Positions 10,842 through 36,876 of a stretch of DNA of 64,000 nucleotides are shown here, one piece after another. This DNA comes from Candidatus Omnitrophota bacterium (lineage in GTDB: Bacteria > Omnitrophota > Gorgyraeia > Gygaellales > Profunditerraquicolaceae). A model generated the notes under the pieces. The model did not search any database and was not told the origin of the DNA. It saw only the letters and a program-made list of their open reading frames with translations. The stretch covers positions 118,385 through 182,384 of the forward strand of contig JACQXK010000032.1 of assembly GCA_016208765.1 (NCBI GenBank), written 5' to 3'. A program made the position numbers and the translations under genes. The stretch's first letter is position 1. Each line of letters starts with the position of its first letter.

Positions 10842-10845
10842 AAGC

Positions 10846-11136
10846 CTATTTCACCCTGTCAATTTTCTTTAAATTAAAATACCCTAACACCTTAACTTTT
10901 GCCGAGGACTTCTCTACCAGCCAATCATGGTATTTATTCATAAAACTGTCATGCTCGGCTTTACTTTTCCATTCATAAACAGAGGCATATTGATTCTTGA
11001 AATCATATCTCTTCACGGTATGATACGAAATAAAACCTTTCGCCTTTCGGGCATAACCTGCCCACATCTTGCTGTCCTTGCGGTATTTTCCAACTTCTTT
11101 AGGCTGGATCTCAAATAAAGCTACATGTATAAACAT
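10846..11136 (-). CDS. small alpha+beta-barrel protein, possibly ABM/antibiotic-biosynthesis-monooxygenase-like
   Basis: 96 aa with no strong motif. The fold guess rests on size and composition only. Confidence 0.3.
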   Translation of the reverse strand: MFIHVALFEIQPKEVGKYRKDSKMWAGYARKAKGFISYHTVKRYDFKNQYASVYEWKSKAEHDSFMNKYHDWLVEKSSAKVKVLGYFNLKKIDRVK

Positions 11137-19355: not shown

Positions 19356-20318
19356 TCAAGCCTTAAAATCTTTAATTATTTCTCCGAGCATTTCTTCAAG
19401 CCCCACTTTAGGAATATAGCCTGTATATTTCTTTATCTTAGACAAATCAGGGATCCTGCGCTGCATATCCTCAAAGCCATCCCCATAGGCATCCTTATAA
19501 GAAATATAATGAATTACAGATTTACTATTGGTAAGTTTCTTGATTTTGTGCGCGAGTTCCTCAACGCTGATCTCTTCATCGTTGCCAATATTAAAAACCT
19601 CGCCAAAACATTTAGAAGTTTCTAATAATTTAATTATCCCATTTACAATATCCCCGACATAGGAAAAGCACCTTCTCTGTTTTCCATCGCCGTAGATTGT
19701 AATCGGCTGGTTTAAAATAGCCTGTTTAATAAAACGCGGCACCACCATCCCGTATTCTCCGGTTTGACGCGGGCCGCAGGTGTTAAAAAATCTCGTAATT
19801 ACAACCGGGATTTTATGCTCTTTAAAATACGCAAATGCCAAAAACTCATCAAGTTTTTTTGTGCAGGCATAGCTCCAGCGGTAAAGCTTGGTGTAGCCGA
19901 TTATGCTATCATCCTCTTCTTTAAAGGGGACCTTATTATTTTTTCCGTAAACCTCAGAAGTTGAAGCAATCAAAACCGGCGTATTAGACCTGCTTGCCTC
20001 TTCAAGAATAATTTCTGTGCCGCGCACATTTGTAGTGATGGATTTTAAAGGATTATCAATAATATATTTAACTCCCACAGCAGCAGCCAAATGATAAACG
20101 CAATCAACATCTTTAATCAGGCGCGACATCAGTTTTTCATTCATGATACTTTCAAGATGAAACTTAAAATGCTCATGATGCTTAAGATGCGCGATATTAT
20201 CAAGCTTTCCGGTGGACAGGTCATCCACAGCTACTACGCTGTTATTTTGCGAAAGCAGCTTATCTGCAAGATGCGACCCAATAAAACCCGCTCCTCCGGT
20301 AATCAATACTTTCTTCAC
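19356..20318 (-). CDS. NAD-dependent sugar-nucleotide epimerase/dehydratase, UDP-glucuronate decarboxylase (UXS/ArnA-C)-like
   Basis: N-terminal ITGGAGFIGSHL Rossmann motif, a YxxxK catalytic pair (SYACTKK) and a GDGKQRRCFSYVGD block resembling the UXS/ArnA decarboxylase subfamily. 320 aa. Confidence 0.7.
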   Translation of the reverse strand: MKKVLITGGAGFIGSHLADKLLSQNNSVVAVDDLSTGKLDNIAHLKHHEHFKFHLESIMNEKLMSRLIKDVDCVYHLAAAVGVKYIIDNPLKSITTNVRGTEIILEEASRSNTPVLIASTSEVYGKNNKVPFKEEDDSIIGYTKLYRWSYACTKKLDEFLAFAYFKEHKIPVVITRFFNTCGPRQTGEYGMVVPRFIKQAILNQPITIYGDGKQRRCFSYVGDIVNGIIKLLETSKCFGEVFNIGNDEEISVEELAHKIKKLTNSKSVIHYISYKDAYGDGFEDMQRRIPDLSKIKKYTGYIPKVGLEEMLGEIIKDFKA

Positions 20319-20320
20319 TT

Positions 20321-21358
20321 TTATTTCCTTTGTTTTGCCATATGATGCTGGCGCATTTTTACTTGATGTAATTTCCAGATACCCCAGATAAAAAATAAAA
20401 TAAAACCGGATGATACCAATATAGCGCTCTTTATTCCGTCTTTAGGTATTGAAATTGCGATACAAACCAGGACAAAATTAATAATATAAATAAACATCAC
20501 TGTTTCCCTCTGGCTCAGGCCCATGTGTGTAAGTCTATGCGATAAATGATCTGTATCCGCGTGTTCAAGCCACTGCCTGAACGTGCGTACCTTTCCTTCA
20601 GCTATCCTTAAAACAGTGATCATGGATGTATCAAAAATCATCACCCCGAGCATTAAGACAGGGATTGTTACGGCGATTAACTTACTTTCCGACCAAGAAG
20701 CCATTATTGCCATAGATGAAATAACAAATCCAAGAAACGTACTTCCGGAATCTCCCATAAATACTTTAGCAGGATTAAAATTATAGCGTAAAAATCCCAA
20801 AGTACTACCTAATAAACTAATGCTCAGAAAAACCAGCCACCTCTGGCCGGTTTTATAAGCAATTGCAGCTATACCGAAACAACAGATTGCCGCAATTCCC
20901 CCGGCAAGACCGTCCATATTGTCTAAGAAATTCAAAGCATTAGTAATACCGACGATACCGGCAACAGTAAAGAATACATTAGCAGCATCCCAAGGAAAAA
21001 CTTTAATTACTACGCCATGCGCTACCACCACAATACATGCCACCAACTGAAAAAAAAGCCTTAACGACGCGCGTAAATGCCGCATATCATCAATCACGCC
21101 AATAAACATAATAATGCTTGCGCCTATCAATATCCCGCGCAGCTGAGTATTATAATCAAAACTGGAAAGCGTTCCGATGACAAACGCCATATACATTGCC
21201 ATGCCTCCTAATTTAGGCATTGGCTGTTTATGAATTTTGCGGCTCTTAGGATGGTCCAAAATATCAAATTTAAAAGCAAGCCTCATACATAAAGGCACCA
21301 GAAACAATGAAGCGATTAAGGAAATAATTGCTACTCTTATATATTGGCTGACAATCAT
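20321..21358 (-). CDS. polyprenyl-phosphate HexNAc-1-phosphate transferase (WecA/MraY family), initiating transferase
   Basis: About 10 TM segments and an ITNALNFLDNMDGLAGG motif (NxxNxxDGxDGL of the MraY/WecA family). 345 aa. Confidence 0.8.
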   Translation of the reverse strand: MIVSQYIRVAIISLIASLFLVPLCMRLAFKFDILDHPKSRKIHKQPMPKLGGMAMYMAFVIGTLSSFDYNTQLRGILIGASIIMFIGVIDDMRHLRASLRLFFQLVACIVVVAHGVVIKVFPWDAANVFFTVAGIVGITNALNFLDNMDGLAGGIAAICCFGIAAIAYKTGQRWLVFLSISLLGSTLGFLRYNFNPAKVFMGDSGSTFLGFVISSMAIMASWSESKLIAVTIPVLMLGVMIFDTSMITVLRIAEGKVRTFRQWLEHADTDHLSHRLTHMGLSQRETVMFIYIINFVLVCIAISIPKDGIKSAILVSSGFILFFIWGIWKLHQVKMRQHHMAKQRK

Positions 21359-21361
21359 CGG

Positions 21362-22411
21362 TTAATCTACTATCGCCTTAAGCGTTTTAGTAATAATATG
21401 CCTGGCCTTTTGGCTACTTAACTCTGGATATATGGGCAAAGAAATGGTGTTTTTAAAAACTTCATTGGTAGAAGGGAAATCACTGCTTTTAAATCTTAGA
21501 TATTGATGCAAGGGCCTAAAAACCGGCTTCTTTGCTTCAATGCCTGACTTTTGCAATTTTTCAACTAAAACATCAGCGCTATTCTTGCTTCTTATAACAT
21601 AACGAAAATAAACATGCTCTTTATTCTGGACAGGTAAAGGTAAAATCAACCCAGAATCAGCGAAAGATTTATTATACATCTTGGCAATCCTTTGTCTACG
21701 GGAAATAAACTCAGGGATTTTCTTTAACTGCTCTAAGCCCATTGCCGCAGCCAGATCATTCATTTTGTAATTAAAACGCAGGTGATAATCAGGCTTATTA
21801 TCATAATCTTTTAAATCTCTGACAAAATCAGAAACCTTTTTGTCGTTGGTAAGGATCATCCCGCCTTCTGCAGTCGTAAGCATTTTTGTAGCATAGAAAG
21901 AAAATACAGAGATCACGCCAAAACTTCCTATATTTTGCCCCTTATAAGTTGCTCCCACTGCCATGGCACAATCCTCAATAACCGGTACGCCAAGCTTTAG
22001 CAATTCTCTTAAATCTGCAGCCAGTCCGAACATATGCGGCACGATTATCGCCTTAGTTTTATTAGTAAGCGCTTCTTTTACTGCAAAACGGCAAATATTA
22101 AAAGACTCCGGGTCAATATCCACAATCTTTACTGTTGCACCGGTATAATTAACGGCATTTAAAACCGCAGTACAAACATAACTGGGGATGATTACTTCAT
22201 CTCCTTTTCTTATTTTTAATGCCAATAAAGCAAGGTGCAAACCTGATGTGCCTGAATTAACCGCTGTTGCAAAACGCATACCGATAAAATCAGCTAACCC
22301 CTGTTCAAACTTACCAGTTAACTTACCCTCGGCAATAAAACCGCTTTTTAAAACAGAATTCAGGAATTTTATTTCCCTAAAATTAATGGATGGTTTTGAG
22401 TGTGGGATCAT
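21362..22411 (-). CDS. DegT/DnrJ/EryC1/StrS-family PLP-dependent sugar aminotransferase (ArnB-like)
   Basis: 349 aa with typical N-terminal blocks (VNSGTSGLHLAL..., ...DIDPE...) and a Lys-containing SFYATK region. Confidence 0.8.
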   Translation of the reverse strand: MIPHSKPSINFREIKFLNSVLKSGFIAEGKLTGKFEQGLADFIGMRFATAVNSGTSGLHLALLALKIRKGDEVIIPSYVCTAVLNAVNYTGATVKIVDIDPESFNICRFAVKEALTNKTKAIIVPHMFGLAADLRELLKLGVPVIEDCAMAVGATYKGQNIGSFGVISVFSFYATKMLTTAEGGMILTNDKKVSDFVRDLKDYDNKPDYHLRFNYKMNDLAAAMGLEQLKKIPEFISRRQRIAKMYNKSFADSGLILPLPVQNKEHVYFRYVIRSKNSADVLVEKLQKSGIEAKKPVFRPLHQYLRFKSSDFPSTNEVFKNTISLPIYPELSSQKARHIITKTLKAIVD

Positions 22412-23093
22412 TCTTTAAAATAATTTCTAAGGATTTCGGCCCATAATTAAACAATAAATCAGCAATTGCCAAATCCGGAACAAAACCCGCTTTCATATAT
22501 TGCTGTTTGTATTCAGGGCAATGCCAATCTTGCAAAGAAACTTTTATACCTGCATCATTAAATACTTTTTCATCAAGATAAACTTCCAAAGCATACGCAC
22601 CGGACAGATATGTATCAGCGCCTAATTCTTTGCAAATATTCACCAAACGAAGCGATTCTATTCCGGGAACGCTTAATTCAGAAGACTTGACTATCTTTTG
22701 CTTAAGGCCCAGGCATTCAAGATAGAAAAAAAACATTTCATAATTAATATCATTTAAATTCTCCCAGTCTTTTTGATAAATATTCTCAAAAAAACTCTTA
22801 TATTCCTTAAAATAGGGAGCCTTGCTGTAATTAAAGCACAAAGAATTCCAGTGCTTTTTGCGCCAATTTTGTGAATTATCAATTTTAACTTCGTTAATAT
22901 TCTGCTGAAACTTATTATAAACCGGGACAGTTAAATATGACCAACCCTGGGCAGTTTTAATTTTATTGCGATTCTGCCAGCCGTTTTTATTAAACTGAAT
23001 ATCATCCATGACTACAAATATATCTGAATGATAAATTTTATGAAAATAACGCAACCAGGGAAAGTAATGCAGCTGGTGAGCAGAAAGAATCAT
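22383..23093 (-). CDS. WbqC-like family protein
   Basis: 236 aa. The N-terminal MILSAHQLHYFPWLRYFHKI matches the conserved (Q/H)P.YFPW..YF start of the WbqC family (PF08889) found in O-antigen clusters. Confidence 0.55.
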   Translation of the reverse strand: MILSAHQLHYFPWLRYFHKIYHSDIFVVMDDIQFNKNGWQNRNKIKTAQGWSYLTVPVYNKFQQNINEVKIDNSQNWRKKHWNSLCFNYSKAPYFKEYKSFFENIYQKDWENLNDINYEMFFFYLECLGLKQKIVKSSELSVPGIESLRLVNICKELGADTYLSGAYALEVYLDEKVFNDAGIKVSLQDWHCPEYKQQYMKAGFVPDLAIADLLFNYGPKSLEIILKNDPTLKTIH

Positions 23094-23096
23094 TTC

Positions 23097-23816
23097 TTAA
23101 ACTACAAACCTGTGGCACATAAATGCCTCTGCAGCCTCTACTGAAATTTCACGGCCGCGCACCTTGGCAAGGTTCTCAATATTCTCAAGGCTGGCATGAT
23201 GAATTGAAGGCTTCATCTGTGACTTATGAAATGACACAGCTTTTAATTTTTTATCAAGATATTTAGAAATATCCACATAAAAAGTAGGATGAAATTTCTC
23301 ACGCTCAAGGCTCCAGGAGATTGCCGGATTATCACAGGATAAAACAATTTTCTGAAATGGCTTAACATCCGGTAAATGCGGCCTGCAAGCGGTAAAGCCG
23401 GCACGAAATACAGCTTCATGATCCTGGTTATATGAGGCTGCCGGTAAAATCATCATTGTCGGCTTAATCCGGTCAATAGACAGCTTGCATTCTCTTTCAA
23501 AACAATTTACCAGGTCCTTGCGCGGGATGGCATCTAAACGTAAATGCACTTTTGTATCATTAAAAACAACTTCATAGTCATCAACTTTTAAATATTTCAT
23601 TGCCCCTTCAAATTCTTCATTACGGGTATTTCCATTAACAACCATATCATTGCTTTTTGGCCCGTAATGCACAACCTCTCCCACAGAAACTACAATCACA
23701 TAAACTTCAGCCCCAAGGTCTTTCATCTTGGCAATTGTCCCGCCGCAACCAAAGACCTCGTCATCAGCATGCGGAGCCAAAACCAAACATTTTTGTTTCT
23801 TTAAGAATGCATCCAT
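23097..23816 (-). CDS. PIG-L/LmbE-family N-deacetylase
   Basis: LVLAPHADDEVFGCGGT (HxDDE...GCGG zinc-site signature) and an HxDH region (NQDHEAV). 239 aa. GGAGGA RBS 5 nt upstream. Confidence 0.8.
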   Translation of the reverse strand: MDAFLKKQKCLVLAPHADDEVFGCGGTIAKMKDLGAEVYVIVVSVGEVVHYGPKSNDMVVNGNTRNEEFEGAMKYLKVDDYEVVFNDTKVHLRLDAIPRKDLVNCFERECKLSIDRIKPTMMILPAASYNQDHEAVFRAGFTACRPHLPDVKPFQKIVLSCDNPAISWSLEREKFHPTFYVDISKYLDKKLKAVSFHKSQMKPSIHHASLENIENLAKVRGREISVEAAEAFMCHRFVV

Positions 23817-23850
23817 ATTATTAATCCTCCACTGTAATTAATTGTCGGCT

Positions 23851-23932
23851 GACGTCATTGCGAGCCCGAAGGGCGAAGCAATCTCTGTTTTAGGATTGCT
23901 TCGTCGCGCTTCGCGCTCCTCGCAATGACGAT
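23851..23932. repeat. 82-bp composite palindromic (REP-like) element overlapping the 3' end of the 668-aa CDS
   Basis: GTCATTGCGAG-(X)-GAAGCAATC / loop TCTGTTTTAG / GATTGCTTC-(X')-CTCGCAATGAC. The X and X' bulges each form a small GC hairpin with GAA/TTC loops (GCCC-gaa-GGGC and GCGC-ttc-GCGC). The stop codon of the upstream gene (23892..23890) lies in the central loop. Confidence 0.6.
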
Positions 23933-25896
23933 TTCTTAATTTTCAATAATTCACAATACAAATTATCTATTCTATTCACCATTTCTTTAGCGCTGAAATT
24001 CTCATTCATTATTTTCCTGGCGTTTTCTCCGAATAACTTTGCCTTATCTGGATAAGACAGTAACTGAATAATTCCCTTTGCTAATTCACTACTACTTGCA
24101 GGTTCAACTAAGACACCACTCTCGCCATCTTTCACTAATTCCGGAATACCGCTTACCTTTGTGGCAACGCTTGGCTTTCCCATAACCCCTGCTTCAACAA
24201 GCACCCTGCCCATACCTTCGTTAAGGGAACAAAGCACAAAAATGTCCATTATTGAAATCATGCGCGCCACATCCTGCCTGATACCGGAAAAAATTACTTT
24301 TTGCGATATTCCCAGCTCTTCAACCCTGTTTTGCAGAAATTTACGCTGACTGCCGTCGCCAACCAAGAGAAAATGTGAATTTGGAAATTTCTCCAAGACT
24401 TGCGGCATGGCCTCTACAAAGAAACTTATTCCTTTAATCGGCTCAATTCTGGCAACTGTACCAATAACTTTTCTATCTAAAGGAATCCCTAATTCACCCT
24501 TCGTCTTTTTATTATCAAAAGAACCATTAAAATCCTCTACCTTGACCCCGCTTGGGATAGTGATAAATTTATCCGCTGTGGCAATCTTAAGTTTTAGATG
24601 TTCATTCTTGCAATTATCCGTCAGGGTAATTATCTTATCACAAAAACAGGAGAAAATCATCTCTAAAAACCTGTATAGCATGCTTTCAAAACGGCCAAAA
24701 TAACTATGAAAAACATGCCCATGCGGCGTGTGCACCACTACCTGCACTCCTGCAAGCTTAGCCGCAAGCCTACCCACAATCCCAGCCTTTGAGGTATGAG
24801 TATGCACAATATCAAAACGATATCTTTTGATTAGAAAATATAATTTAACCAAACTAATCAAATCTTTTACAGGATTAACTTGGCGAACTAACTCTGGAAT
24901 TACCGCTAAATCAATATTTTGCCTACGCACAACTGATTCAATCTCGCCTTCTGGCCCTGATGTTGGGCCGCTTGCCAACATCACCTGATAACCTTTTTCT
25001 CTTAAACCCAAAACTGTTAAAAGAGTATTCTCCTGCGCACCGCCCTTGATTAAACGAGTAATAATATGCAGCACCCTTATTGGACGATTACTATCTTTGA
25101 GTCTTTCCTTAATCATCTTGGACAATAACTTTCTCTGTATCTTAGTTGGCCAGCTAAATTTAGTAGCCAGGCCTAAATCTTGCTTAACCGGCATTGCCCG
25201 GTTATTTTCAATCTGAGTAACTACTTCCACCACCATCTTGCTGCCCAAGGCTAAACCCCGCAGATAAAGCGTTTTTTCATTATCAAAAGGCCAAATTGTA
25301 ATTTTCTTTTGAATCAGGATATCTCCCCTATCTAACTCTTCATTTACAAAATGCACAGTTACGCCGGTTTCATTTTCTTTATTAAATAATGCCCAAAAGT
25401 TAGAATCTAATCCTGCATATTTAGGTAAAAGCGATCCGTGCAGGTTAAGGCAACCGGATTTTGGGATTTGGAAAATATTTTTCTTAATTAAACGCGTATT
25501 GGTGAGAACAACTAAATCCGGATTAAACTTGCGAATTATATTCTCGCTATCCACGCCATTATGATCCTTAACCAAGAAAAATGGAATTTTATAATCTAAT
25601 ACCAGCTCCTCTATTGAAAGATAATGTTTGCTGCGAAAAATATTGCTTCCAAATATTTTTCGTAAAATATAATGCAATTTAATATTAATAAATTCAAGTA
25701 GCCTGTCCTTTGTAAACGAAAAACCATGTTTCTTAAAAGAATCCGACAGTAAAGAAAGGTTGCTGCCATTCTTCTTTAATAACTGTCCCCGCTCCTCGGC
25801 AACAATAGCCACTAAATTTTTCCCAGCATCAAGCAAGCATTTAGCAATTAATGCGCCTGACGGCCTACCAGTCCTGGTTAAAAATACTATTCTCAT
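23890..25896 (-). CDS. bifunctional formyltransferase-domain / GT4 glycosyltransferase fusion protein
   Basis: The N-terminal roughly 250 aa has a formyl-transferase fold (Fmt/ArnA-N/PurN type) with SGCLNLHGSLLPKYAG (HxSLLPxxxG catalytic motif). The C-terminal roughly 380 aa is a GT-B/GT4 domain (GMGRVLVEAGVMGKPSVATKVSGIPELV, EX7E region). The last 11 codons are encoded by the palindromic element. Confidence 0.75.
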   Translation of the reverse strand: MRIVFLTRTGRPSGALIAKCLLDAGKNLVAIVAEERGQLLKKNGSNLSLLSDSFKKHGFSFTKDRLLEFINIKLHYILRKIFGSNIFRSKHYLSIEELVLDYKIPFFLVKDHNGVDSENIIRKFNPDLVVLTNTRLIKKNIFQIPKSGCLNLHGSLLPKYAGLDSNFWALFNKENETGVTVHFVNEELDRGDILIQKKITIWPFDNEKTLYLRGLALGSKMVVEVVTQIENNRAMPVKQDLGLATKFSWPTKIQRKLLSKMIKERLKDSNRPIRVLHIITRLIKGGAQENTLLTVLGLREKGYQVMLASGPTSGPEGEIESVVRRQNIDLAVIPELVRQVNPVKDLISLVKLYFLIKRYRFDIVHTHTSKAGIVGRLAAKLAGVQVVVHTPHGHVFHSYFGRFESMLYRFLEMIFSCFCDKIITLTDNCKNEHLKLKIATADKFITIPSGVKVEDFNGSFDNKKTKGELGIPLDRKVIGTVARIEPIKGISFFVEAMPQVLEKFPNSHFLLVGDGSQRKFLQNRVEELGISQKVIFSGIRQDVARMISIMDIFVLCSLNEGMGRVLVEAGVMGKPSVATKVSGIPELVKDGESGVLVEPASSSELAKGIIQLLSYPDKAKLFGENARKIMNENFSAKEMVNRIDNLYCELLKIKKSSLRGARSATKQS

Positions 25897-27062
25897 CTAA
25901 CTCTTTCGTCATTGCGAACCTTATTTAGCTTTTCTCTAAATATCTCAACCGCCCTCTGCCAATTCAATTCTTCAACTACCCTTTTTCTTCCGTTCTCGCC
26001 TAATCTCTTAGCAAGCTCTCTATCCAAAAGCAGTTTTAAAATTGCTTGGGTAACATCGTCTTTGCTAAAAGGGTCCACCAATAAACCGGTTTTACCATCT
26101 TCTATCGCTTCATTTACTCCTCCGGATTTACCACCGACAACCGGCTTTTCACAGGCATTTGCCTCCAAATAAACAATTCCAAAACCCTCAATATCTCCTC
26201 TCTCTTCTAGAGTGCGGCTGGGCATAACAAAAATATCACAAAGATTATAGAATTTAAGCAACTCTTCATCCGGCACTCTTCCGGCAAAACGAAGATATCT
26301 TTCTACGCCCAACACATTAGTAAGGTTCTCTAAATTCTGACGAAACGATCCTCCACCAACCAAAACATAGACAACATCAGGATGAGCTTTAATTATTTCA
26401 GGCATAGAGCGAATAACCATATCAAAACCTTTTCTTTCCACCAGTCTGCCCACAGAAAGAATTACTTTTTTACCTAAAAGATTATACTTAGACCTAAAAT
26501 CATCTGTTACTTTTAAAGGATAATATTTTTGATGGTCGGTTCCCGGTTTAATTAAGATGATCTTTTCTTTAATAACGCCGAATTTTATCAGGCGCTCTTT
26601 TACAAACTCTGTGATTGCTGCCACAAACAGAGCATTATTGTAGATTTTTAAATATAATTTGTGCATAAACTTATTTCTCTCAAATTTACCAAATTCATAT
26701 CCATAAGCCCACATAGCATACTTAAAACCTAATATTTTAGAAAATAAATACGCGATAACTCCGCCATAAGCAATATTCATTGGGATTACAATCTTAATCC
26801 GGTATCTTAAAATTACCCACGGCATTACAAAAAGAATAGGGATAAGCCTCAAATAACCTAATTCATACCAGGGAGTGCGAATTACTTTAAATTTCTGCAA
26901 GCTATCATACTCCTTAGCACCTTTTGCCTGGGGGCCGATAACAATAATTTGCTCTCCGGCACCAGACAAGCGCGAAGCTAATTCATGCGCCACTGTGCTA
27001 ACGCCATCAGTGTGCGGGGGAAAATCTACCGAAACAATAAGAATCTTGGTTTTTATTTGCAT
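25893..27062 (-). CDS. GT4-family glycosyltransferase
   Basis: C-terminal EGFGIVYLEANACEKPVVGGKSGGVNEAIEDGKTGLLVDP (EX7E GT4 motif). 389 aa. Confidence 0.8.
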   Translation of the reverse strand: MQIKTKILIVSVDFPPHTDGVSTVAHELASRLSGAGEQIIVIGPQAKGAKEYDSLQKFKVIRTPWYELGYLRLIPILFVMPWVILRYRIKIVIPMNIAYGGVIAYLFSKILGFKYAMWAYGYEFGKFERNKFMHKLYLKIYNNALFVAAITEFVKERLIKFGVIKEKIILIKPGTDHQKYYPLKVTDDFRSKYNLLGKKVILSVGRLVERKGFDMVIRSMPEIIKAHPDVVYVLVGGGSFRQNLENLTNVLGVERYLRFAGRVPDEELLKFYNLCDIFVMPSRTLEERGDIEGFGIVYLEANACEKPVVGGKSGGVNEAIEDGKTGLLVDPFSKDDVTQAILKLLLDRELAKRLGENGRKRVVEELNWQRAVEIFREKLNKVRNDERVR

Positions 27063-27075
27063 AATATACTATTTG

Positions 27076-27254
27076 GCAATAAAGGTTTCTGTGAGCGCAC
27101 AATTAGAGATTTTTTGGCATAGCATTCTTATTTACAGTCTTCAAGGCTTTATGACGAGCGAGAGTACACCTAAATGCGTAAGCCGTTACGAAAGCGAGTC
27201 ATAAACCGCAGAAGACGGCAAAAAATCTCGTGCGCGAACAGAAACTTTTGTTGC
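27076..27254. repeat. about 179-bp MITE-like element (copy B), in the opposite orientation to the copy at 18253..18433
   Basis: Matches the rev-comp of 18253..18433 block by block, including the shared core AAAGCGAGTCATAAACCGCAGAAGACG (27 of 27) and TIR-specific substitutions. It lies in the 214-bp intergenic region upstream of the GT4 gene at 25893..27062. Confidence 0.7.
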
Positions 27255-27276
27255 TGAATAATGATCCAGCAACAAA

Positions 27277-28149
27277 TTATACTTTCATCAACCTATTAAA
27301 AACCCGTAATATTTTGTTTAAAAAAATACAGTTCTTGATTTCTAACAAATCTAGCTCCCCATTAAGTTTGGCCAGAAATGTAAACATATTATCCGAAGAC
27401 TCTATCCCTATGCGCCTTAACTCAAACAAATCAGTGCTAACATCATTTACCCCGTTCATCGCAGTAAACCCAAAAATATAACCTGCCTCCTCGGCAACCT
27501 TTTTTACATCCTGGTTAAAATCAATCACTAAACCAAACGGATACGAAATCATATCAATCTTACTTCCAAGCTCTTTTTCTATAATTTCCTTTGAATCTGT
27601 AATTTCCTTCTTAAAATCTGTGACTTTACCCAAATTAGCATGATTAATTGTATGCGACCCAAAATCAATCCCATACCTTGACATTTCTCTTACTTGATCC
27701 CAGGCAAGGAAATGATTATAAATAGGATTATCGTTAATATCATGCGGCAATATTTTCTCTGTACCGATGTATCCTGCGGTTAAAAATATTGTTGCCGGGA
27801 CTCCTAAATTTCTTAAGATAGGATACGCATTAGTGTAGTTATCCGAGTAGCCGTCATCAAAAGTAACTGCCACTGCCTTTTTAGGCAAGCATCTTTTTTG
27901 TTTTAACAAACCACAGGCATCTTTTAATGAAAGTAAAGAATAATTCTTTGCCAAAAACTGCATTTGTTTCCTGAATTTATTTATCTTTACATTTACCTCG
28001 TGCTTTCTAAAATCGCCTACACTGTGATACCTTATAATTACCAGCTTATTCTTTCTACGGCCAAGCCAGAGAGGTAAAAAAATACAATAACCAATAACAG
28101 CAAGAAAGATCAAGATTAACTTTTTAATAAAAATCTTTAAAGCAATCAT
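27277..28149 (-). CDS. polysaccharide deacetylase (NodB homology; ArnD-like deformylase/deacetylase candidate)
   Basis: N-terminal TM helix, then a VAVTFDDGYSDNY...H motif set (the TFDDG NodB signature). 290 aa. Confidence 0.8.
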   Translation of the reverse strand: MIALKIFIKKLILIFLAVIGYCIFLPLWLGRRKNKLVIIRYHSVGDFRKHEVNVKINKFRKQMQFLAKNYSLLSLKDACGLLKQKRCLPKKAVAVTFDDGYSDNYTNAYPILRNLGVPATIFLTAGYIGTEKILPHDINDNPIYNHFLAWDQVREMSRYGIDFGSHTINHANLGKVTDFKKEITDSKEIIEKELGSKIDMISYPFGLVIDFNQDVKKVAEEAGYIFGFTAMNGVNDVSTDLFELRRIGIESSDNMFTFLAKLNGELDLLEIKNCIFLNKILRVFNRLMKV

Positions 28150-29897
28150 TTAGAACTACCTTTGTTAAAAGAATATTTTACAATCCCATACCCAAACCCT
28201 AAGGCATAAACAAAATATGCTAATGCACGCAGAAACTTAAACTCAAAAATAGCTTTTACTATCCTTAAAGGAAACCTGAATATGCGGACAAAAAATGGCA
28301 CTTTTGGCTTAAATGAATTAAGTTCCAGTGCTTCGTCTGTATCATAGATAAGTTGTGGCTGGTATTTCAGGCAGTAAGCAGAGCCCAGCCCATTTCTGAA
28401 AAATGTTTTGGCTAATTTACCGATACTACCCGGTAACGGATGATACACCCATGTATTGGGTGCAAGCACTGTCTTATAGCCTTTTTGGCGCATGCGAAAT
28501 CTTAGATCCGGGTCAAGCCCGCGCAAGATATTCTCCCTTTCTCCTCCAACTTCATCAAATACTTTCCTAGGGATAGCACAACAACCGTGGCAAGCCATAT
28601 CGCTTTCTGTTACTTCTTCCACAACCTTCATCCCAAACCGCGGGAATTCTTCTCCGGCTTTCTTTTGCAGCCAATTCGCATCCGGGGGAACTAAGATTGA
28701 CGCACCTGCCATGCCAATATCCTTATTTTCTTTAAGCGTTCTAAGAAGATTTTCAATTACATAAATGTTATCAACCCGTGAATCATCGTCTATAATAACC
28801 AAAGTATCTCCTCCAGCGGCAGAAACACCCATATTAATTGCCTTACCCTGGGGAGAAACTTTCTTTACAACCAATACTTCAAAGTTGCGATATGCCTGCC
28901 TGCTTAAATCTGCCAAAAGTTTACTAACATTGCCTCCTCTATCTCCGTCTAAAGAAGGGATAATCACCGAAACATCAGGATTCATACTATAAACAATCTT
29001 TCTAATTTGCCCGTTTTCGGAATCACTAAGAGAATGCCCTTCTTGAGAGTTTTTCTGAATAACACTGACTTCTTTTTTCTCCAGGACAAAAAGTAAACAA
29101 GAACCAGATCCTGAATCATTAACATAATCATCCCTCAATATCCGGCTAAAAACAGAAGCAATGATCTTACGATGAAAATTTATCCCTATAAAACTTAAAA
29201 CATTAGAGATAAATCTAACCATCGAACCAAGATTTACTTTGCTTATTCCAATATACTGCAGGTCCGTCCAAAGAAAAAATGTTCCTTCCACTTTAGGCGA
29301 TAAATAATATTTACTTTCTAATATTTTAAAGTTTGTTTTAGCAAAAATCCGCTTCCAAAAAGCGGCATCTTTAAGGCTATTAAGCGCCAGGCGCTTACTC
29401 AAATACCTCTTCCAGGTCAAACTCAACTTACTCAAGCCGTATTTTTTTAAGAAAACGAAAACCGGATCTTGATCACTAAAGTTTGCGCAATTAATCGTAA
29501 GCACAACTTTGGCTTTATCCTTTAAAACCCTTGAAGATTCAGACAAAACCTCTTCTATCCCTCCCTCAGGAACATGCTCTAAGAATGAATTAATTAACAA
29601 GCTTGAGAAAGAATTGTTCTTAAAAGACATGGCTCTGGCATCACAAACTACTAATCCGGAATAAACTTTCTTTCTTTTTGCTAAGAATAGATTTGCAGCC
29701 TTATAATCCAGCCCCACAGCGGAATTTCTTTCTAAAAGCACAGAAGTAAATGTGCCATCGCCGCAACCCATATCCAATATCGGCGGTTTTAATTCAACAG
29801 GAGAAATAATTCTCGCCTCAATAGCCCTCAATAAAGCCTTTGCAGGATCCCAGTGGTAGTTATATAAAAATTCGCTTAAATAATCCTTCATAGCCAT
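28146..29897 (-). CDS. SAM-methyltransferase / GT2 glycosyltransferase fusion
   Basis: N-terminal class-I MTase motif I (ILDMGCGDGTFT) and a C-terminal GT2 domain (VSVIIPSL...NFEVLVV...IDDDS DxD). 583 aa. Confidence 0.75.
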   Translation of the reverse strand: MAMKDYLSEFLYNYHWDPAKALLRAIEARIISPVELKPPILDMGCGDGTFTSVLLERNSAVGLDYKAANLFLAKRKKVYSGLVVCDARAMSFKNNSFSSLLINSFLEHVPEGGIEEVLSESSRVLKDKAKVVLTINCANFSDQDPVFVFLKKYGLSKLSLTWKRYLSKRLALNSLKDAAFWKRIFAKTNFKILESKYYLSPKVEGTFFLWTDLQYIGISKVNLGSMVRFISNVLSFIGINFHRKIIASVFSRILRDDYVNDSGSGSCLLFVLEKKEVSVIQKNSQEGHSLSDSENGQIRKIVYSMNPDVSVIIPSLDGDRGGNVSKLLADLSRQAYRNFEVLVVKKVSPQGKAINMGVSAAGGDTLVIIDDDSRVDNIYVIENLLRTLKENKDIGMAGASILVPPDANWLQKKAGEEFPRFGMKVVEEVTESDMACHGCCAIPRKVFDEVGGERENILRGLDPDLRFRMRQKGYKTVLAPNTWVYHPLPGSIGKLAKTFFRNGLGSAYCLKYQPQLIYDTDEALELNSFKPKVPFFVRIFRFPLRIVKAIFEFKFLRALAYFVYALGFGYGIVKYSFNKGSSK

Positions 29898-31468
29898 TCA
29901 CCTATTTGAGTAGATGTGGTTTTAATTCCAAATAAAGATTTCAGCAATTTGAGTTCCTTTAATTTAAACAAGACTGACAGAAGTAAATAAACAATTCCTG
30001 CTATTAACGAAATAAACAGCAAACTGAAAATTCTCCTGCTAAAACCATTGAATAAACCCAGGTATTCAAAATAATATCGTAAGAGAAAAACACAAAATCC
30101 GGAAATTAAAGTAATGATAGCCACCTTGAACAAGTAAAAGAAAAACTCAGTATTAAATTTATAATCAATGACTTTCCCTAGAAAATAATACGTCAGCAGG
30201 ACTGTATTCAATAACAATGCAATTGAGAAAGACACTGATAAAGCAACAACCGGAGTCAAATACTTCAATAAAATAAACATCAGGATACAATTAACAAATA
30301 GCCTAAAAATAAGAAAACACAAATACATGGCTGTTCTCTTTAAAACAATTGCCGTTCTTAAGCTAACTGCCTCAATACCAAGGCCTGTCAGGCCCAAAGA
30401 AAATAAAGCAATCGCTTGTGCGGTCTGGTCAGCCGTTGACCAATCAAACTTCCCATGAAGAAACAAAACTCTTGAGATCAAACCTGATAGTAAGAAAATA
30501 AGAACCGAGACCGGAATCAAAACAAATATCATTATTCGGAAAAACCGAATGATCATTTCCTTGAATCTTCCATTATTGTCCAAGATAGAGTGCTCTACCA
30601 TTATAGGATAGTAAATATAAAATGTTAATCCTTCAATAACCAAAAGAGGAGCCTGGATCACAATATAGCCGTAATTAAGTATTGAAATGGCCCCTGAGTA
30701 ATGAGAAGCAAAAATCCGAGTAATAGCCATAATGCTCTCCATCACCAACAATACTGCGACAATCATAATAAAAGATTTCCAAATTTCCGGCATCTGGCTC
30801 TTGGCTTCAAAATGTTTTTGCGAATGGCTAATTCCTTTAAAATGATCAAATGAAACAAGCTGGCCTGCCATTTTAGAAAAAGCCCCTGCTAATACGCCCA
30901 CCGCAATAGCATAAATCCCCCAGAAATAAGTAAGAAACAACACGAAAAAAAGGACCACAAAGTTATTCAAAGGCTGAGAGCAGGAAGCTATGGTTTTATT
31001 ATTGTGGCTCGTATTAACCGACTGTAAAATCGCAGCCGCCCCTCCAAACAGAATTGCAAAAGACATAACCCTTAACAAGACTACAGCCAAAGATAACGAC
31101 TGATAATCAAACCCGGGAACCAGAAATCTCAGGATAGACTCAGCGCCAAAAACTACAGCAAGACTAACTCCCAAGAGCCACAAAAGAACAACCTTTGAAA
31201 ATGACATAAACAAAATAAGCCCGTCCTCTTTTCTGTATTTTCTTACCGCAATATAAACCGGGACAAATGCAGAATATAATGCCCAGCTCACAATGCTCTC
31301 AATCCTAAGAGGAATAGCCCTGGCTGCGATAAAAGCATCGGTTATACGGGAGGCCCCGAATTTGATGGCAATAAACAGGTCAACAAAGTAACCCAAAAAC
31401 TTTCCCAGAATAATAACCGCGCCAATTAAAACAATCGGCTTCTTAAGAAATTCAAAGATATGCTTCAT
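29888..31468 (-). CDS. MOP-superfamily flippase (MurJ/MviN-like; Wzx-type candidate)
   Basis: 526 aa with about 14 TM segments. The N-terminal FGASRITDAFIAARAIP resembles the MurJ-family start. Confidence 0.65.
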   Translation of the reverse strand: MKHIFEFLKKPIVLIGAVIILGKFLGYFVDLFIAIKFGASRITDAFIAARAIPLRIESIVSWALYSAFVPVYIAVRKYRKEDGLILFMSFSKVVLLWLLGVSLAVVFGAESILRFLVPGFDYQSLSLAVVLLRVMSFAILFGGAAAILQSVNTSHNNKTIASCSQPLNNFVVLFFVLFLTYFWGIYAIAVGVLAGAFSKMAGQLVSFDHFKGISHSQKHFEAKSQMPEIWKSFIMIVAVLLVMESIMAITRIFASHYSGAISILNYGYIVIQAPLLVIEGLTFYIYYPIMVEHSILDNNGRFKEMIIRFFRIMIFVLIPVSVLIFLLSGLISRVLFLHGKFDWSTADQTAQAIALFSLGLTGLGIEAVSLRTAIVLKRTAMYLCFLIFRLFVNCILMFILLKYLTPVVALSVSFSIALLLNTVLLTYYFLGKVIDYKFNTEFFFYLFKVAIITLISGFCVFLLRYYFEYLGLFNGFSRRIFSLLFISLIAGIVYLLLSVLFKLKELKLLKSLFGIKTTSTQIGEWL

Positions 31469-32744
31469 TCTTCTTCTCTTTCTCCCATAGCCATAAGATT
31501 AACGCTGTCATTGCCCAAAAAACAAACATAATGCGCGAAATCATAAAAACCACTAAAGCATTAGAGACAATAAGTAAACCGAGAAAACCACCAAGATATC
31601 CTATGGCAAGCCCCCTGATAAAATTACTCGCTGTTTTTCTTTGTAAAAACCAAACAGTTTTAAAGATTGTAAATATTACCGATATAAAGGCAATGAAACC
31701 AAAAATTCCCATTTCAGCAAGAATCATCAGGTACTGATTTTCATAAAATACCCTTTCTCTGCCTCCTATACCTATGCCAAATAAAGGATACTGCCTTATG
31801 CCTTCCCAGGCATATTTGATTTGTTGAAAACGATAGGCAACTGAAGAATTGTTTGGATCGGAATTCAGAAAAGTTTGCTTAATAGAAACCAGGCGTTCAA
31901 ATATTGCATGGGGAGAAAGAACTGCTATAAATATCATAATAAATATTGTTAAAAATAAAATTTTTTTGCTTCTTAATGCGGAAATAAACAACAGCGAAAC
32001 AAAAAGCGCTATGTAGCTTGCACGAGAGTAAGTCCAGAATAACGGTAAGCACAACAAAATAATCCCAGCTAAAAAAATAACTTTCTTTAATAACGGCTTG
32101 TCCATATAAAGCAATATCCCAAACAATAACGATGAAAAAAACATCAACACTGCAGCAAAATGGCTGGCATCATGATAGAAGAATCCTCTTTCATAAATTC
32201 GGTAATAAAAAGGACAGCTAAAAGGATAATGCGCATAGGGGAAAAAATGTTCAATTATTCCATATCCGGCTATTAGAAAAACAGGAACAAACATCAACTT
32301 CAAGAAGAAACCAGCCTTCAGCTCTTGCTGAAAAATAACCAAGCTAAGATAAAACACAAGAAAATACTGAGCAATTTTAGTTAGATAAAAGAAACCAGCA
32401 AACGGTTCAGAAATTGTATGTCTTAAAATACCAAAGAACACAGACAACAAGCCAATAAAAATAAAAACTATAATTGGTAAATCTAACGGAAGGCTATTGA
32501 CGGCTTTTAATCTGAAGGCTGCCAGAAAAAACAACAAAACAAATACAATATCCTCAAGCTTAACAAACACTACTTCACTGCCAAGTTGAAATAAATTTAT
32601 CTTAAAAGAAAATAGAGAAAAGAAAATTAATAATGCCCAAACTAATTTTACCAGGGCAGAATACTCTTTTGATCTGGGTAGATGCGGAAAAATACTTAGG
32701 AATCTTGAAGTGGTAAAAACTCCAGAAACTTCTGCTTGAGGCAT
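31452..32744 (-). CDS. O-antigen ligase / polymerase family (Wzy_C domain) membrane protein
   Basis: 430 aa, polytopic, with Wzy_C-like blocks (TYSRASYIALFVSLL... and a periplasmic loop FLNSDPNNSSVAYRFQQI...GIGIGG). Confidence 0.6.
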   Translation of the reverse strand: MPQAEVSGVFTTSRFLSIFPHLPRSKEYSALVKLVWALLIFFSLFSFKINLFQLGSEVVFVKLEDIVFVLLFFLAAFRLKAVNSLPLDLPIIVFIFIGLLSVFFGILRHTISEPFAGFFYLTKIAQYFLVFYLSLVIFQQELKAGFFLKLMFVPVFLIAGYGIIEHFFPYAHYPFSCPFYYRIYERGFFYHDASHFAAVLMFFSSLLFGILLYMDKPLLKKVIFLAGIILLCLPLFWTYSRASYIALFVSLLFISALRSKKILFLTIFIMIFIAVLSPHAIFERLVSIKQTFLNSDPNNSSVAYRFQQIKYAWEGIRQYPLFGIGIGGRERVFYENQYLMILAEMGIFGFIAFISVIFTIFKTVWFLQRKTASNFIRGLAIGYLGGFLGLLIVSNALVVFMISRIMFVFWAMTALILWLWEKEKKNEAYL

Positions 32745-36848: not shown

Positions 36849-36876
36849 AGAATATTAAATAACCCCTGCTTTAACC

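Follow-up and report, generated by a model that had tools for sequence, protein, structure and literature searches.

A formyltransferase-GT4 glycosyltransferase fusion in uncultured Omnitrophota whose relatives associate with sugar de-N-acetylases

Introduction

Among described systems, heparan N-deacetylase/N-sulfotransferase and NodB-NodS-NodA editing follow a logic similar to that of the exchange of acetyl for formyl considered here, and ArnA exemplifies the principle that domains joined in one protein are not obliged to catalyse consecutive steps. We know of no glycan with a 2-formamido sugar tied to genes such as those described below, and literature searches for such glycans tied to such genes returned nothing relevant. 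The genes lie in a window of 64,000 nucleotides from a Candidatus Omnitrophota bacterium (contig JACQXK010000032.1, positions 118,385 to 182,384), in which an ORF check placed all listed ORFs at the coordinates given here, on the minus strand.

Results and discussion

A conserved formyltransferase-GT4 fusion

A 668-aa protein encoded by one ORF (23890-25896, minus strand) joins a formyltransferase (FT) domain (residues 1-268; 25093-25896, minus strand) to a GT4 domain, here GT4c (residues 272-655; 23932-25083, minus strand). As the original prediction had proposed, the fusion is a single gene: translation revealed no internal stops, an NCBI Candidatus Omnitrophica MAG and, as an independent record, a Logan assembly contig encode a protein with 100% identity, and the fusion is likewise one ORF in the single-cell genome Omnitrophus fodinae (L009). 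Pfam bore out all of the earlier domain calls, placing PF00551 at residues 119-226 (9e-28) and PF13439 (1.8e-21) and PF00534 (1.7e-40) over residues 285-628; PF02911, the Fmt/ArnA C-terminal domain that had also been named as a candidate, was not found by Pfam in the 668-aa protein. A search for the same architecture returned 83 full-length homologues at 37-83% identity, and the protein appears to be a genuine bifunctional enzyme of uncultured Omnitrophota with a conserved architecture.

The FT domain carries the anticipated catalytic motif, N151-L-H153-G-S-L-L-P-K-Y-A-G162 (25411-25446, minus strand), with the third triad residue, D189, at 25330-25332 (minus strand), and is closed by a conserved F-S-W-P motif (residues 247-250). 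The Asn151/His153/Asp189 triad is retained in 80 of the 83 fusion homologues, and N151, H153, P158, G162, W168, D189 and G191 are invariant in an alignment of 71 diverse clade members, consistent with a catalytically intact N10-formyl-tetrahydrofolate-type formyltransferase. Two homologues (P0088 and P0089) have lost the triad Asn and Asp and retain the domain. In the GT4 domain, E560 is conserved in 83/83 and E568 in 76/83 homologues, and Foldseek comparison with HepE, PglA, BshA, MshA and PimB' gave TM scores to target of 0.82-0.89. The AF2 model of the fusion has a pLDDT of 87.5 and a pTM of 0.66, with no confident interface between the two domains.

The lack of a confident interface and the degenerate triads of P0088 and P0089 would suit a fusion without mechanistic meaning, in which neighbouring operon genes merged by stop-codon loss, each domain works on an intermediate of its own, independently of the other, and FT is perhaps a non-catalytic scaffold in some lineages; that relatives carry the two domains fused, in reversed order (L033) or split (L034) points the same way. 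We consider this very unlikely, given that at least 83 sequence clusters spanning 37-83% identity keep the fusion, the triad being strongly conserved, and that the FT clade repeatedly and independently fuses with enzymes of the same process.

The FT clade and its basic insertion

The best solved relatives of the FT domain are Fmt, a GDP-perosamine formyltransferase and ArnA-N. A profile search recovered 730 clade representatives (E<=1e-30), most of them 245-290 aa long and not part of a fusion. Clade members score 187-307 bits against a clade HMM vs 76-174 against an Fmt HMM (292 vs 164 for the window FT) and true Fmt proteins show the reverse, which sets this clade of short (~260 aa) enzymes apart from Fmt. 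Their shared motif, HxSLLPKYRG...W, is one that we take to be ArnA-like and not Fmt-like.

A basic amphipathic helical insertion occupies residues 40-92 (25621-25779, minus strand; modelled helices 46-57 and 59-86), at what is presumably the position of the Fmt acceptor-recognition loop. It has a net charge of +8 (family mean +9.4), includes the most amphipathic stretch of the domain (residues 64-81, muH 0.56), and is strongly basic and amphipathic family-wide. These properties point to an acceptor that is membrane-bound or otherwise anionic.

Organisation of the locus

Ordered by coordinate, the block reads SDR, WecA-like transferase, DegT, WbqC, PIG-L, fusion, GT4, NodB, which differs from the order first described. 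A second GT4 gene, GT4b (25893-27062, minus strand; Pfam), lies upstream of the fusion, and its orthologue is the FT-fused GT4 of another lineage (L033). Next comes a NodB/CE4 de-N-acetylase (27277-28149, minus strand; PF01522, 1.5e-28); it has the motifs TFDD and HTINH, and the topology of its hydrophobic N-terminal helix is ambiguous. ArnD-like NodB deacetylases, in the plural, had been described here; one lies within 19356-28149 and a second at 37981-39111, outside that range, and the former matched PgaB/IcaB models (poly-GlcNAc de-N-acetylases, which act on glycan residues) with no ArnD hit. A strong stem-loop (23853-23930, minus strand; -46.6 kcal/mol, z -5.5), present as a single copy in the window, spans the fusion gene's stop codon and the gap that separates this gene from PIG-L.

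Pfam further identified a methyltransferase:GT2 fusion (28146-29897, minus strand), kept in L004, L005 and L006 and with its GT2 half also in L033, as well as a MurJ-family flippase (29888-31468, minus strand) and a Wzy_C ligase/polymerase-like membrane protein (31452-32744, minus strand), the latter two conserved upstream of the block in related loci. These are accompanied by a SAM methyltransferase, MT2 (34078-34992, minus strand), whose orthologue is part of an MT:NodB:GT4b fusion in related genomes, and an AsnB-type glutamine amidotransferase (34968-36848, minus strand; closest to TIGR03108, 626 bits vs a cut-off of 817) that is conserved in related loci. At the other end lies a polyprenyl-phosphate HexNAc-1-phosphate transferase of WecA/WbpL type (20321-21358, minus strand; PF00953, WecA/MraY-type in Pfam, 6e-36), likely the initiating enzyme. 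We propose to read the block, with its PF00953 initiating transferase, several GT4 and GT2 enzymes, MurJ-type flippase and Wzy_C-type ligase or polymerase, as a conserved Omnitrophota operon building a lipid-linked surface glycan. The window also holds FemAB-like genes and, at 51-60 kb, a PMT_2 protein along with a polyprenyl-phosphate GT2.

FT partners across lineages

Members of the FT clade have a sugar de-N-acetylase and GT4s, rather than an aminotransferase, as their constant partners. In unrelated lineages FT is joined to, or lies next to, GT4s and de-N-acetylases, the latter of two unrelated folds (NodB and YdjC), and an aminotransferase is usually not close by. Fusions include FT:NodB (P0410, P0485, P0491, P0493, P0502) and FT:YdjC (P0370). 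FT is followed by YdjC in L014, L017 and L021 and by an overlapping or abutting NodB in L008, L009 and L024, as well as in 6/6 new metagenome clade loci (L050, L061, L064, L079, L087, L093), the latter comprising all those having downstream sequence. The order NodB-GT4b-FT is found in the window, in all related Omnitrophota loci and in L034. Triple MT:NodB:GT4b fusions (989-1055 aa) in related genomes and an FT:MT fusion repeat the same pattern of modifier, deacetylase and GT4. No aminotransferase was found within 10 kb of FT in L014, L017, L021 and L033, nor anywhere on the shorter contigs L031, L050, L061, L064, L079 and L093, which leaves deacetylation as the sole visible amine source in those loci. 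Elsewhere, L020 has the order FT, ATP-grasp, NodB, a CapK_C protein is close to FT:NodB in L031, and a FemAB-like gene adjoins FT in L039.

The GT4 partner varies. In Omnitrophota FT is fused to GT4c and in L033 to GT4b, the GT4 half of the L033 protein scoring 291 bits (39%) with GT4b and 75 bits with GT4c; in L034 FT is unfused. Since FT is joined to the upstream GT4 in one relative and to none in another, the fusion partner is no fixed receiver of the FT product, and the original suggestion that an N-formyl sugar is handed directly to the fused GT4 was not supported.

A proposed second module for amino-sugar tailoring

We interpret four further genes of the block as a second module, separable from the rest, for the tailoring of an amino sugar: a PIG-L/LmbE-type deacetylase with an AHADDE motif (23097-23816, minus strand; Pfam 3.4e-17), a WbqC-family protein of unknown function (22383-23093, minus strand; Pfam 2.7e-73), a DegT-family sugar aminotransferase (21362-22411, minus strand; Pfam 3.5e-95) with perosamine synthetase and ArnB as its best relatives of solved structure, and, as an accessory member, an extended SDR of the UDP-uronate decarboxylase type (19356-20318, minus strand; PF16363 1e-59, UXS1 1e-58). 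PIG-L is the most conserved protein of the block (61-99% identity over related loci) and forms a conserved pair with WbqC both there and on Bacillus plasmids, where PIG-L, WbqC, DegT and a more distant SDR occur together with a GNAT and without FT or GT4. Among ~16 related loci, the window, L009 and L034 are the only ones with the UXS-like SDR in or adjoining the block; another orthologue is found 3 kb away from the FT:YdjC fusion of L029. Orthologues of the window SDR (50-56% identity) occur in L009, L034 and L029 only.

The SDR and DegT invite an Arn-like reading, in which the SDR decarboxylates UDP-uronate to a 4-keto-pentose, DegT aminates it, FT formylates the resulting 4-amino sugar while it is still nucleotide-linked, the fused GT4 transfers the product directly, and NodB or PIG-L later deformylates it. 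Several features would fit: the SDR carries STSEVYG, presumably a decarboxylase-type signature, and near its C-terminus AYGDGFEDMQRRIPD, which we take to resemble an ArnA/UAXS motif; DegT matches a solved ArnB structure at 185 bits and always accompanies FT, two to three genes away, in the Omnitrophota block; PMT_2 (ArnT-type) GT-C genes occur inside the block in L002 and L003, and the window has its own PMT_2 protein and GT2; and the clade motif is presumably ArnA-like. Genes for a nucleotide-sugar dehydrogenase, DegT and an SDR are neighbours on Bacillus plasmids, which makes decarboxylation followed by transamination plausible for part of the locus, as had been predicted; the further step of feeding FT found no support, with the SDR in few loci and the module standing apart from FT on the plasmids. 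The UXS-type assignment of the SDR held (202 bits vs UXS1), the likeness to ArnA-C being much weaker (115 bits). NCBIfam scores lie below the cut-offs for ArnA (88.7 vs 777), ArnB (217.7 vs 631) and ArnC (67.8 vs 529), the window NodB gave no ArnD hit, the FT-fused transferase belongs to GT4 and is no ArnC-like GT2, clade FTs of several lineages have deacetylases and no aminotransferase as neighbours, and WbqC is left without a role. Overall, we judge an Arn-like pathway through FT to be unlikely.

WbqC bears on another scheme, in which the formyl group goes onto an aminoacyl or another acyl substituent. It is modelled on the logic of the mycothiol pathway (MshA-MshB-MshC-MshD) plus the Fmt reaction: an ATP-dependent ligase would place an amino acid on the sugar amine after deacetylation and FT would formylate the alpha-amine. 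The ligase might be WbqC here, in Aliifodinibius an ATP-grasp enzyme, and elsewhere a CapK-like or FemAB protein, in line with the neighbours noted above in the window, L020, L031 and L039. In WbqC, strand 1 ends in an invariant H6-Q-x-H9, and the best solved fold match of its AF2 model (pLDDT 93) is BshC (probability 0.97, E 4e-3); BshA/MshA (GT4) and BshB/MshB (PIG-L) are among the better matches in the locus, and WbqC pairs with PIG-L. The BshC likeness is, however, a weak, fold-level one (TMq 0.43), with no sequence-level link found by hhalign or HMM searches, and to our knowledge the activity of BshC itself is unproven. Direct FT:deacetylase fusions, minimal loci without a ligase (L033, L014, L017) and Bsh/Msh model scores far below cut-offs further make this scheme highly improbable.

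A proposed acetyl-to-formyl exchange

The explanation that we favour, and to which we would give about an even chance, is that a de-N-acetylase and FT together swap acetyl for formyl on a glycan residue, which the fused GT4 then extends. At the cytoplasmic membrane face, a GT4, most likely the upstream GT4b, would add an N-acetyl-hexosamine to an undecaprenyl-diphosphate-linked glycan, and the NodB-type deacetylase would take off the N-acetyl group. FT, which its basic amphipathic insertion would anchor at the membrane, would formylate the freed 2-amino group, on which the adjacent methyltransferase may act too. The fused GT4 domain would then extend the chain by one sugar, ahead of flipping, with a formyl in place of an acetyl group on a glycan residue as the net outcome. 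The proposal builds on the architecture, intact catalytic residues, conservation, gene fusions and neighbourhoods observed; what the substrates (donor and acceptor) are, in which order the steps run, that they take place at the membrane, and with which GT4 and deacetylase FT works are inferred from gene context.

A variant places the exchange at the nucleotide level: a deacetylase would make UDP-HexN from UDP-HexNAc or a derivative, FT would convert it to UDP-HexNFo, and the fused GT4 would transfer it. It keeps the idea of direct hand-off, with an amine from deacetylation instead, and draws on the same association of FT, deacetylase and GT4 as the lipid-linked exchange. Characterised sugar N-formyltransferases, as far as we know, all use nucleotide sugars, and an FT-GT fusion would be sensible as channelling of an unusual donor. 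Against this, the NodB, YdjC and PIG-L enzymes known to us act on glycosides, oligosaccharides and lipid-linked sugars, not nucleotide sugars; the window NodB fits polymer deacetylase models; FT is fused to differing GT4s by lineage and mostly unfused; and the insertion suits a membrane-bound or anionic acceptor. We thus regard exchange at the nucleotide level as quite unlikely.

Some observations count against the exchange on a lipid-linked glycan as well. DegT near FT in the Omnitrophota block makes an aminotransferase-derived amine possible for this protein, the GNAT on Bacillus plasmids has an amine-capping role that FT could fill here, and the NodB catalytic domain, if facing outward, cannot feed a cytoplasmic FT. 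The degenerate triads of P0088 and P0089, and a stand-alone GT4c homologue in a locus without FT and without a deacetylase (L038), also weigh against it. If true, the proposed exchange suggests a way of replacing acetyl by formyl on cell-surface sugars that has not been described before.

Architecture of the fusion protein

The open reading frame at 23890–25896, on the minus strand like every gene in the window, encodes a 668-aa protein free of internal stops, in which an N-terminal formyltransferase domain (FT) is joined to a GT4 glycosyltransferase domain (GT4c), as the original prediction had proposed. Pfam places PF00551 at residues 119–226 (9e-28; 97.7 bits against a cut-off of 26.1) and PF13439/PF00534 at residues 285–628, with the GT4 domain beginning approximately 20 residues past the FT core. 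PF02911 (Formyl_trans_C), expected as in Fmt and the N-terminal part of ArnA, has no Pfam match in the protein. The reading frame runs unbroken between the two halves, with no hidden stop or frameshift, and database searching recovered 83 clusters of full-length homologues with the same architecture at 37–83% identity. A 100% identical protein is encoded on a 186-kb contig of an NCBI Candidatus Omnitrophica MAG and also on an independent Logan contig, and the fusion is a single ORF in the Omnitrophus fodinae single-cell genome. The continuous ORF, the identical protein in an independent assembly, the single-cell genome and the 83 homologues together rule out a frameshift or assembly artefact.

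The N-terminal half of FT is divergent, although its AF2 model still has the expected strand-helix pattern. The domain has the catalytic Asn-x-His and Asp with the H-G-S-L-L-P loop; N151, H153 and D189 are all present, and this triad is retained in 80 of the 83 fusion homologues (P0088 and P0089 are degenerate, and Asp is replaced by Glu in P0069). An inactive FT domain is thus ruled out for the 668-aa protein, as far as the intact triad can tell, and holds for P0088 and P0089. These two full-length proteins (37% identity) have lost the triad Asn and Asp (G-H-N, G-H-T) and have no PF00551 match; because they keep the whole domain despite this loss, their sequences suggest a retained, non-catalytic role. 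In the AF2 model, a 53-residue helical insertion contains the most amphipathic helix of FT and carries a net charge of +8 (family mean +9.4). It sits at what we take to be the position of the Fmt acceptor-recognition loop, and its basic, amphipathic character fits a membrane-bound or otherwise anionic acceptor.

GT4c consists of two Rossmann-like domains (PF13439 and PF00534) with an E-x7-E motif (E560 and E568 present) and aligns with HepE, PglA, BshA, MshA and PimB' at TM scores of 0.82–0.89 to the target, a similarity that does not identify the donor. Searching structures with the complete fusion model gave generic GT4 and ArnA matches only, which likewise do not reveal donor specificity. 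The AF2 model of the fusion has a pLDDT of 87.5 and a pTM of 0.66, so the relative orientation of FT and GT4c is uncertain.

Gene content and conservation of the locus

Pfam annotation of the minus strand around the fusion gives, in the order of transcription, a methyltransferase:GT2 fusion (28146–29897), a NodB/CE4 deacetylase (27277–28149), a second, separate GT4 (GT4b, 25893–27062), FT:GT4c itself, a PIG-L deacetylase (23097–23816), a WbqC-family protein (22383–23093), a DegT aminotransferase (21362–22411), a PF00953 WecA/MraY-type transferase (20321–21358) and an extended SDR (19356–20318). Genes on the upstream side encode a MurJ-type flippase, a Wzy_C protein, DUF4330, two methyltransferases, an amidotransferase of the AsnB type, further GT4s, a second NodB enzyme and a FemAB-like protein. 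Past the SDR, on the downstream side, the gene content is unrelated (MazG, Rrf2, a pyridoxal-phosphate-dependent enzyme of the PALP family and homocysteine synthesis), and we therefore place the end of the glycan locus at 19356. A highly stable stem-loop (−46.6 kcal/mol, z −5.5), present in one copy within the window, extends over the fusion gene's stop codon and the gap that precedes PIG-L (23853–23930, minus strand); its 5' arm codes for the disordered last ~12 residues of the fusion protein (pLDDT <50).

Farther upstream, a second glycan system occupies 41969–61198 of the same strand, with a B12-binding radical SAM enzyme (41969–43486), a Wzm/Wzt-type ABC transporter (45598–47684), a 757-aa PMT_2 GT-C enzyme (51059–53332), a further methyltransferase:GT2 fusion (53343–54809), a polyprenyl-phosphate-sugar-synthase-like GT2 (58786–59985) and a hexapeptide acyltransferase. 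The AsnB-type amidotransferase, stp2-like GT4s, second NodB and FemAB-like protein (34968–41233, minus strand) form a gene set resembling PEP-CTERM loci. The likeness to XrtA/PEP-CTERM exopolysaccharide loci extends to an amidotransferase closest to TIGR03108, GT4s closest to stp2/stp3, the FemAB-like protein, NodB deacetylases and an O-antigen-ligase-like protein, as well as to an FT:NodB fusion beside EpsI in a related locus (L031; related loci and contigs carry L-numbers and homologous proteins P-numbers). We reject this assignment because all model scores fall below their cut-offs (TIGR03108 626 against 817; stp2 186–208 against 409; TIGR03019 59 against 260). No exosortase was found among the annotated window ORFs, a set covering those beyond 9769 apart from several at 54802–62558.

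Look-ups and a scan of species-representative genomes recovered the same gene order in ~16 loci, almost all from Omnitrophota: AsnB, a small protein, Wzy_C, MurJ, (methyltransferase/GT2), NodB, GT4b, FT:GT4c, PIG-L, WbqC, DegT and PF00953. No protein of this block is more conserved than PIG-L (61–99% identity). Several related genomes encode the methyltransferase, NodB and GT4b as one protein of 989–1055 aa (L002 5312–8323; L003 6837–10004; L009 7029–9998), the window counterparts of which are three separate genes (34078–34992, 27277–28149 and 25893–27062), while in L034 FT (272 aa) and GT4c (399 aa) are separate, adjoining genes. Set beside both the divided genes of L034 and the 83 clusters of intact fusions, a reading in which the fusion carries no mechanistic meaning seems very unlikely to us. 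Also in L034, the PF00953 initiating transferase as called (9925–11050, extending past the locus end) additionally matches a Response_reg (receiver) domain, a combination that would be unusual in a WecA-type enzyme. Omnitrophus fodinae contains, between its FT:GT4 fusion and its UXS-like SDR, a 348-aa ORF that matches nothing in Pfam (L009 11952–12998).

A formyltransferase clade coupled to de-N-acetylases

Searching an FT-domain profile against 1.84 billion representative proteins returned 730 representatives at E<=1e-30, mostly stand-alone proteins of 245–290 aa, from Omnitrophota, Elusimicrobiota, Bacillota, Deltaproteobacteria, Balneolales and others. Members score 187–307 bits against the clade HMM and 76–174 bits against the Fmt HMM, and true Fmt proteins show the reverse; by these scores the clade is distinct from Fmt. 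Seven residues (N151, H153, P158, G162, W168, D189 and G191) are invariant in 71 diverse members. Aminoacyl-formylation by FT appears the least probable of the readings considered. When the FT domain alone was used in a word-indexed search, Fmt proteins dominated the output, and a metagenome scan with the generic pattern Hx[SA]LLPKYRG, most matches to which were true Fmt or ArnA-like genes, recovered clade members in only 8 of 80 loci.

Where the clade occurs in multi-domain proteins, its partners are glycosyltransferases, deacetylases or a methyltransferase: FT:GT4, GT4:FT (P0367), FT:YdjC (P0370), FT:NodB (P0410, P0485, P0491, P0493 and P0502) and FT:methyltransferase (P0436). A further protein of 1052 aa (P0488) has an N-terminal clade FT followed by ~800 residues without a Pfam match. 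Gene neighbourhoods repeat the deacetylase association, with FT followed by YdjC in deltaproteobacterial, Bacillota and Elusimicrobia MAGs (L014, L017 and L021). In L008, L009 and L024 the gene after FT is instead a NodB that overlaps or abuts it, as it is in all six new metagenome clade loci with downstream sequence (L050, L061, L064, L079, L087 and L093). In L031 the order is EpsI, GT4, [FT:NodB], GT4, GT4, and in L033 it is GT2, NodB, [GT4b:FT], the GT4 half of the latter being orthologous to window GT4b (291 bits) and not to GT4c (75 bits). From these fusions and neighbourhoods we conclude that two unrelated deacetylase folds, NodB and YdjC, interchange beside or fused to the same FT, and that either flanking GT4 can be its fusion partner. 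The cultured Aliifodinibius salipaludis WN023 has the order FT, ATP-grasp, NodB (L020 5720–8620), with a stand-alone FT and a NodB that carries DUF3473; around them are three GT4s, a Bac_transf initiating enzyme and another ATP-grasp, labelled 'sugar-transfer associated'.

Comparison with the Arn pathway

The locus had initially been read by Arn pathway logic, in which a sugar is decarboxylated, transaminated, N-formylated, transferred by GT4 and deformylated. The locus does combine an SDR of the decarboxylase type with a DegT aminotransferase and a NodB-fold enzyme, but their link to FT is unsupported. The SDR is of the UDP-uronate decarboxylase type, in agreement with its description as UXS-like: among solved structures human UXS1 is its best relative (1e-58, 202 bits, versus 115 bits for ArnA-C), and it carries STSEVYG, which we take to be a decarboxylase signature. 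Against NF008872 the SDR scores 153.9 bits (cut-off 294). The folate-type FT also resembles ArnA in its Asn-His-Asp triad, its HxSLLPKY(R/A)G motif and its fusion to an enzyme of the same pathway, and GT-C (PMT_2) enzymes are found in some related loci. The PMT_2 protein of the window (51059–53332) is 25 kb from the fusion; L002 and L003 have PMT_2 genes within the block itself.

No protein, however, reaches an Arn equivalog cut-off. FT is fused to GT4 instead of a decarboxylase and lacks Formyl_trans_C; FT and the SDR are separate genes 3.5 kb apart, unlike the FT-decarboxylase architecture of ArnA, and score 88.7 and 136.3 bits, respectively, against NF005998 (cut-off 777). DegT scores 217.7 bits against ArnB (cut-off 631), below its scores against the PseC and LegC models, and its best solved relative is perosamine synthetase. 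The adjoining GT2 (28146–29897) has no ArnC match, and the distant GT2 (58786–59985) scores 67.8 against a cut-off of 529. The proposal of an ArnD-like deformylase did not hold, since the NodB protein at 27277–28149 matches PgaB, IcaB, PdaA/PdaB, PgdA and NodB models only, with no match to ArnD, and is PgaB/IcaB-like. The SDR itself is often missing: orthologues (50–56% identity) accompany the block, inside it or adjacent to it, in the window, L009 and L034 only, with a further one 3 kb from an FT:YdjC fusion in L029.

An Arn-like route, in which FT would formylate the amine derived from the SDR and DegT, draws support, for this particular protein, from the constant company of DegT and FT within the Omnitrophota block. 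The clade, however, tracks deacetylases and GT4s even without an aminotransferase, none being detected within 10 kb of FT in L014, L017, L021 and L033 or in the shorter contigs L031, L050, L061, L064, L079 and L093, and we consider this route unlikely. 'Decarboxylate and transaminate' may well be right for the DegT/SDR/WbqC/PIG-L module; a feed from that module into FT is not supported.

The PIG-L, WbqC, DegT and SDR module

Plasmids of the Bacillus cereus group carry nucleotide-sugar dehydrogenase, DegT, SDR, class V aminotransferase, GNAT, WbqC, PIG-L, isomerase and MFS genes, in this order, and lack FT and GT4 there; we read DegT, SDR, WbqC and PIG-L as a separable amino-sugar module. Its adjacency to FT and its resemblance to BshB had suggested PIG-L as the deacetylase partner of FT; this idea is downgraded because the module exists on these plasmids without FT and because clade FTs elsewhere pair with NodB or YdjC. 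WbqC and PIG-L adjoin in all Omnitrophota loci, as they do on the plasmids (window 22383–23816, minus strand; L037 8001–9374). No solved sequence relative of WbqC was found, and the literature describes the family only as uncharacterised. Its model (pLDDT 93) best matches BshC among solved structures (Foldseek probability 0.97, E 4e-3, TMq 0.43), with class I tRNA synthetases and cytidylyltransferases as the next matches, and an invariant H6-Q-x-H9 lies at the end of the first strand, presumably the HIGH motif position in such folds. No WbqC–BshC link was found at the sequence level (hhalign probability 0.1; no HMM match; the BshC sequence compared is 100% identical to 4wbd).

The module and its neighbouring GT4 recall bacillithiol and mycothiol synthesis (BshA-BshB-BshC; MshA-MshB-MshC-MshD), in that BshA and MshA are among the closest solved relatives of the GT4 and PIG-L is closest to BshB/MshB. 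Every score is nonetheless far under the family cut-offs (BshA 121 against 274; MshA 111 against 462; BshB1 and BshB2 53 against 182–195), WbqC and BshC share no detectable sequence similarity, and the window context is a membrane glycan assembly locus, not one for thiol synthesis. As the fold match stands without sequence support, a correspondence of GT4, PIG-L and WbqC to BshA-BshB-BshC is a lead and not a finding, and a BshB/BshC-like deacetylase-ligase pair is one possibility for PIG-L and WbqC.

A proposed role in glycan editing

We posit that GT4 would place a HexNAc on a lipid-linked glycan, that de-N-acetylation would expose its amine, and that FT would then formylate this amine; the substrates and step order are inferred. 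Known NodB, YdjC and PIG-L enzymes act on glycosides and not on nucleotide sugars, which favours action of FT after transfer, and on gene content we regard deacetylation followed by formylation on the lipid-linked glycan as evenly balanced between right and wrong. Solved nucleotide-sugar N-formyltransferases are significant sequence matches to FT, and WbkC, VioF, WlaRD, QdtF, FdtF, WbtJ and PseJ share its catalytic fold and residues and its surface-glycan setting. These enzymes formylate aminotransferase-derived 3- or 4-amino groups on dTDP-, GDP- and UDP-sugars. What sets the clade apart is a helical insertion of basic character, an FSWP motif at the C-terminus and constant partnership with a deacetylase. 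An acetyl-to-formyl exchange at the nucleotide level would sit well with this kinship and less well with the glycoside preference of the deacetylases, and we think it quite unlikely.

Editing after transfer has precedents in logic, though not in ancestry. In heparan sulfate NDST and in NodB-NodS-NodA, a GlcNAc residue within a glycan loses its acetyl group and a partner enzyme, in some cases fused to the deacetylase, modifies the exposed amine; for Nod factors, an N-methyltransferase (NodS) acts on that amine as well. By analogy, the recurrent fused and adjoining methyltransferases may parallel NodS, and the FT:deacetylase fusions recall NDST. The modifying domains of those systems are unrelated (a sulfotransferase and the NodA acyltransferase), whereas here a folate donor would supply a formyl group and the intermediate acted upon would presumably be linked to a polyprenyl carrier.

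The FT:GT4c observation is confirmed at the level of sequence, and its Arn-like interpretation is partly supported. Domain by domain the fusion consists of already known enzyme types; the FT:GT4 architecture, the clade and its coupling to de-N-acetylases appear undescribed in the literature searched, which yielded no paper pairing 'formyltransferase domain' with 'glycosyltransferase domain' and nothing relevant on formyltransferase together with PIG-L, 2-formamido sugars, deacetylase or GalNAcA. To our knowledge, the formylated amine of all characterised N-formyl sugars was introduced by an aminotransferase on the nucleotide sugar, and we know of no established origin for 2-formamido hexosamines. 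We tentatively propose, at somewhat less than an even chance, that FT represents an unrecognised family of glycan-editing N-formyltransferases that, with a de-N-acetylase (sometimes fused, as in NDST), swaps acetyl for formyl on a HexNAc already on a lipid-linked glycan, the amine perhaps being N-methylated first. The family would then supply the missing biosynthetic route to 2-formamido sugars and be the first sugar formyltransferase to act post-transfer instead of on a nucleotide sugar.

A clade with a de-N-acetylase as its constant partner points to a simple, testable route of deacetylation followed by formylation, and experiments are feasible since the cultured Aliifodinibius salipaludis, with its stand-alone clade FT near NodB, offers a tractable system. 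The proposal gives a working hypothesis for a widespread, unannotated family now labelled only 'glycosyltransferase' or 'formyl transferase', and distinguishes this family from another conserved module (PIG-L, WbqC, DegT and SDR), which includes a family of unknown function. It also describes a core cell-surface glycan locus for Omnitrophota, a phylum known mainly from uncultured genomes, in which, if the reaction occurs on the lipid-linked glycan, FT would exemplify a new class of post-transfer glycan editing.
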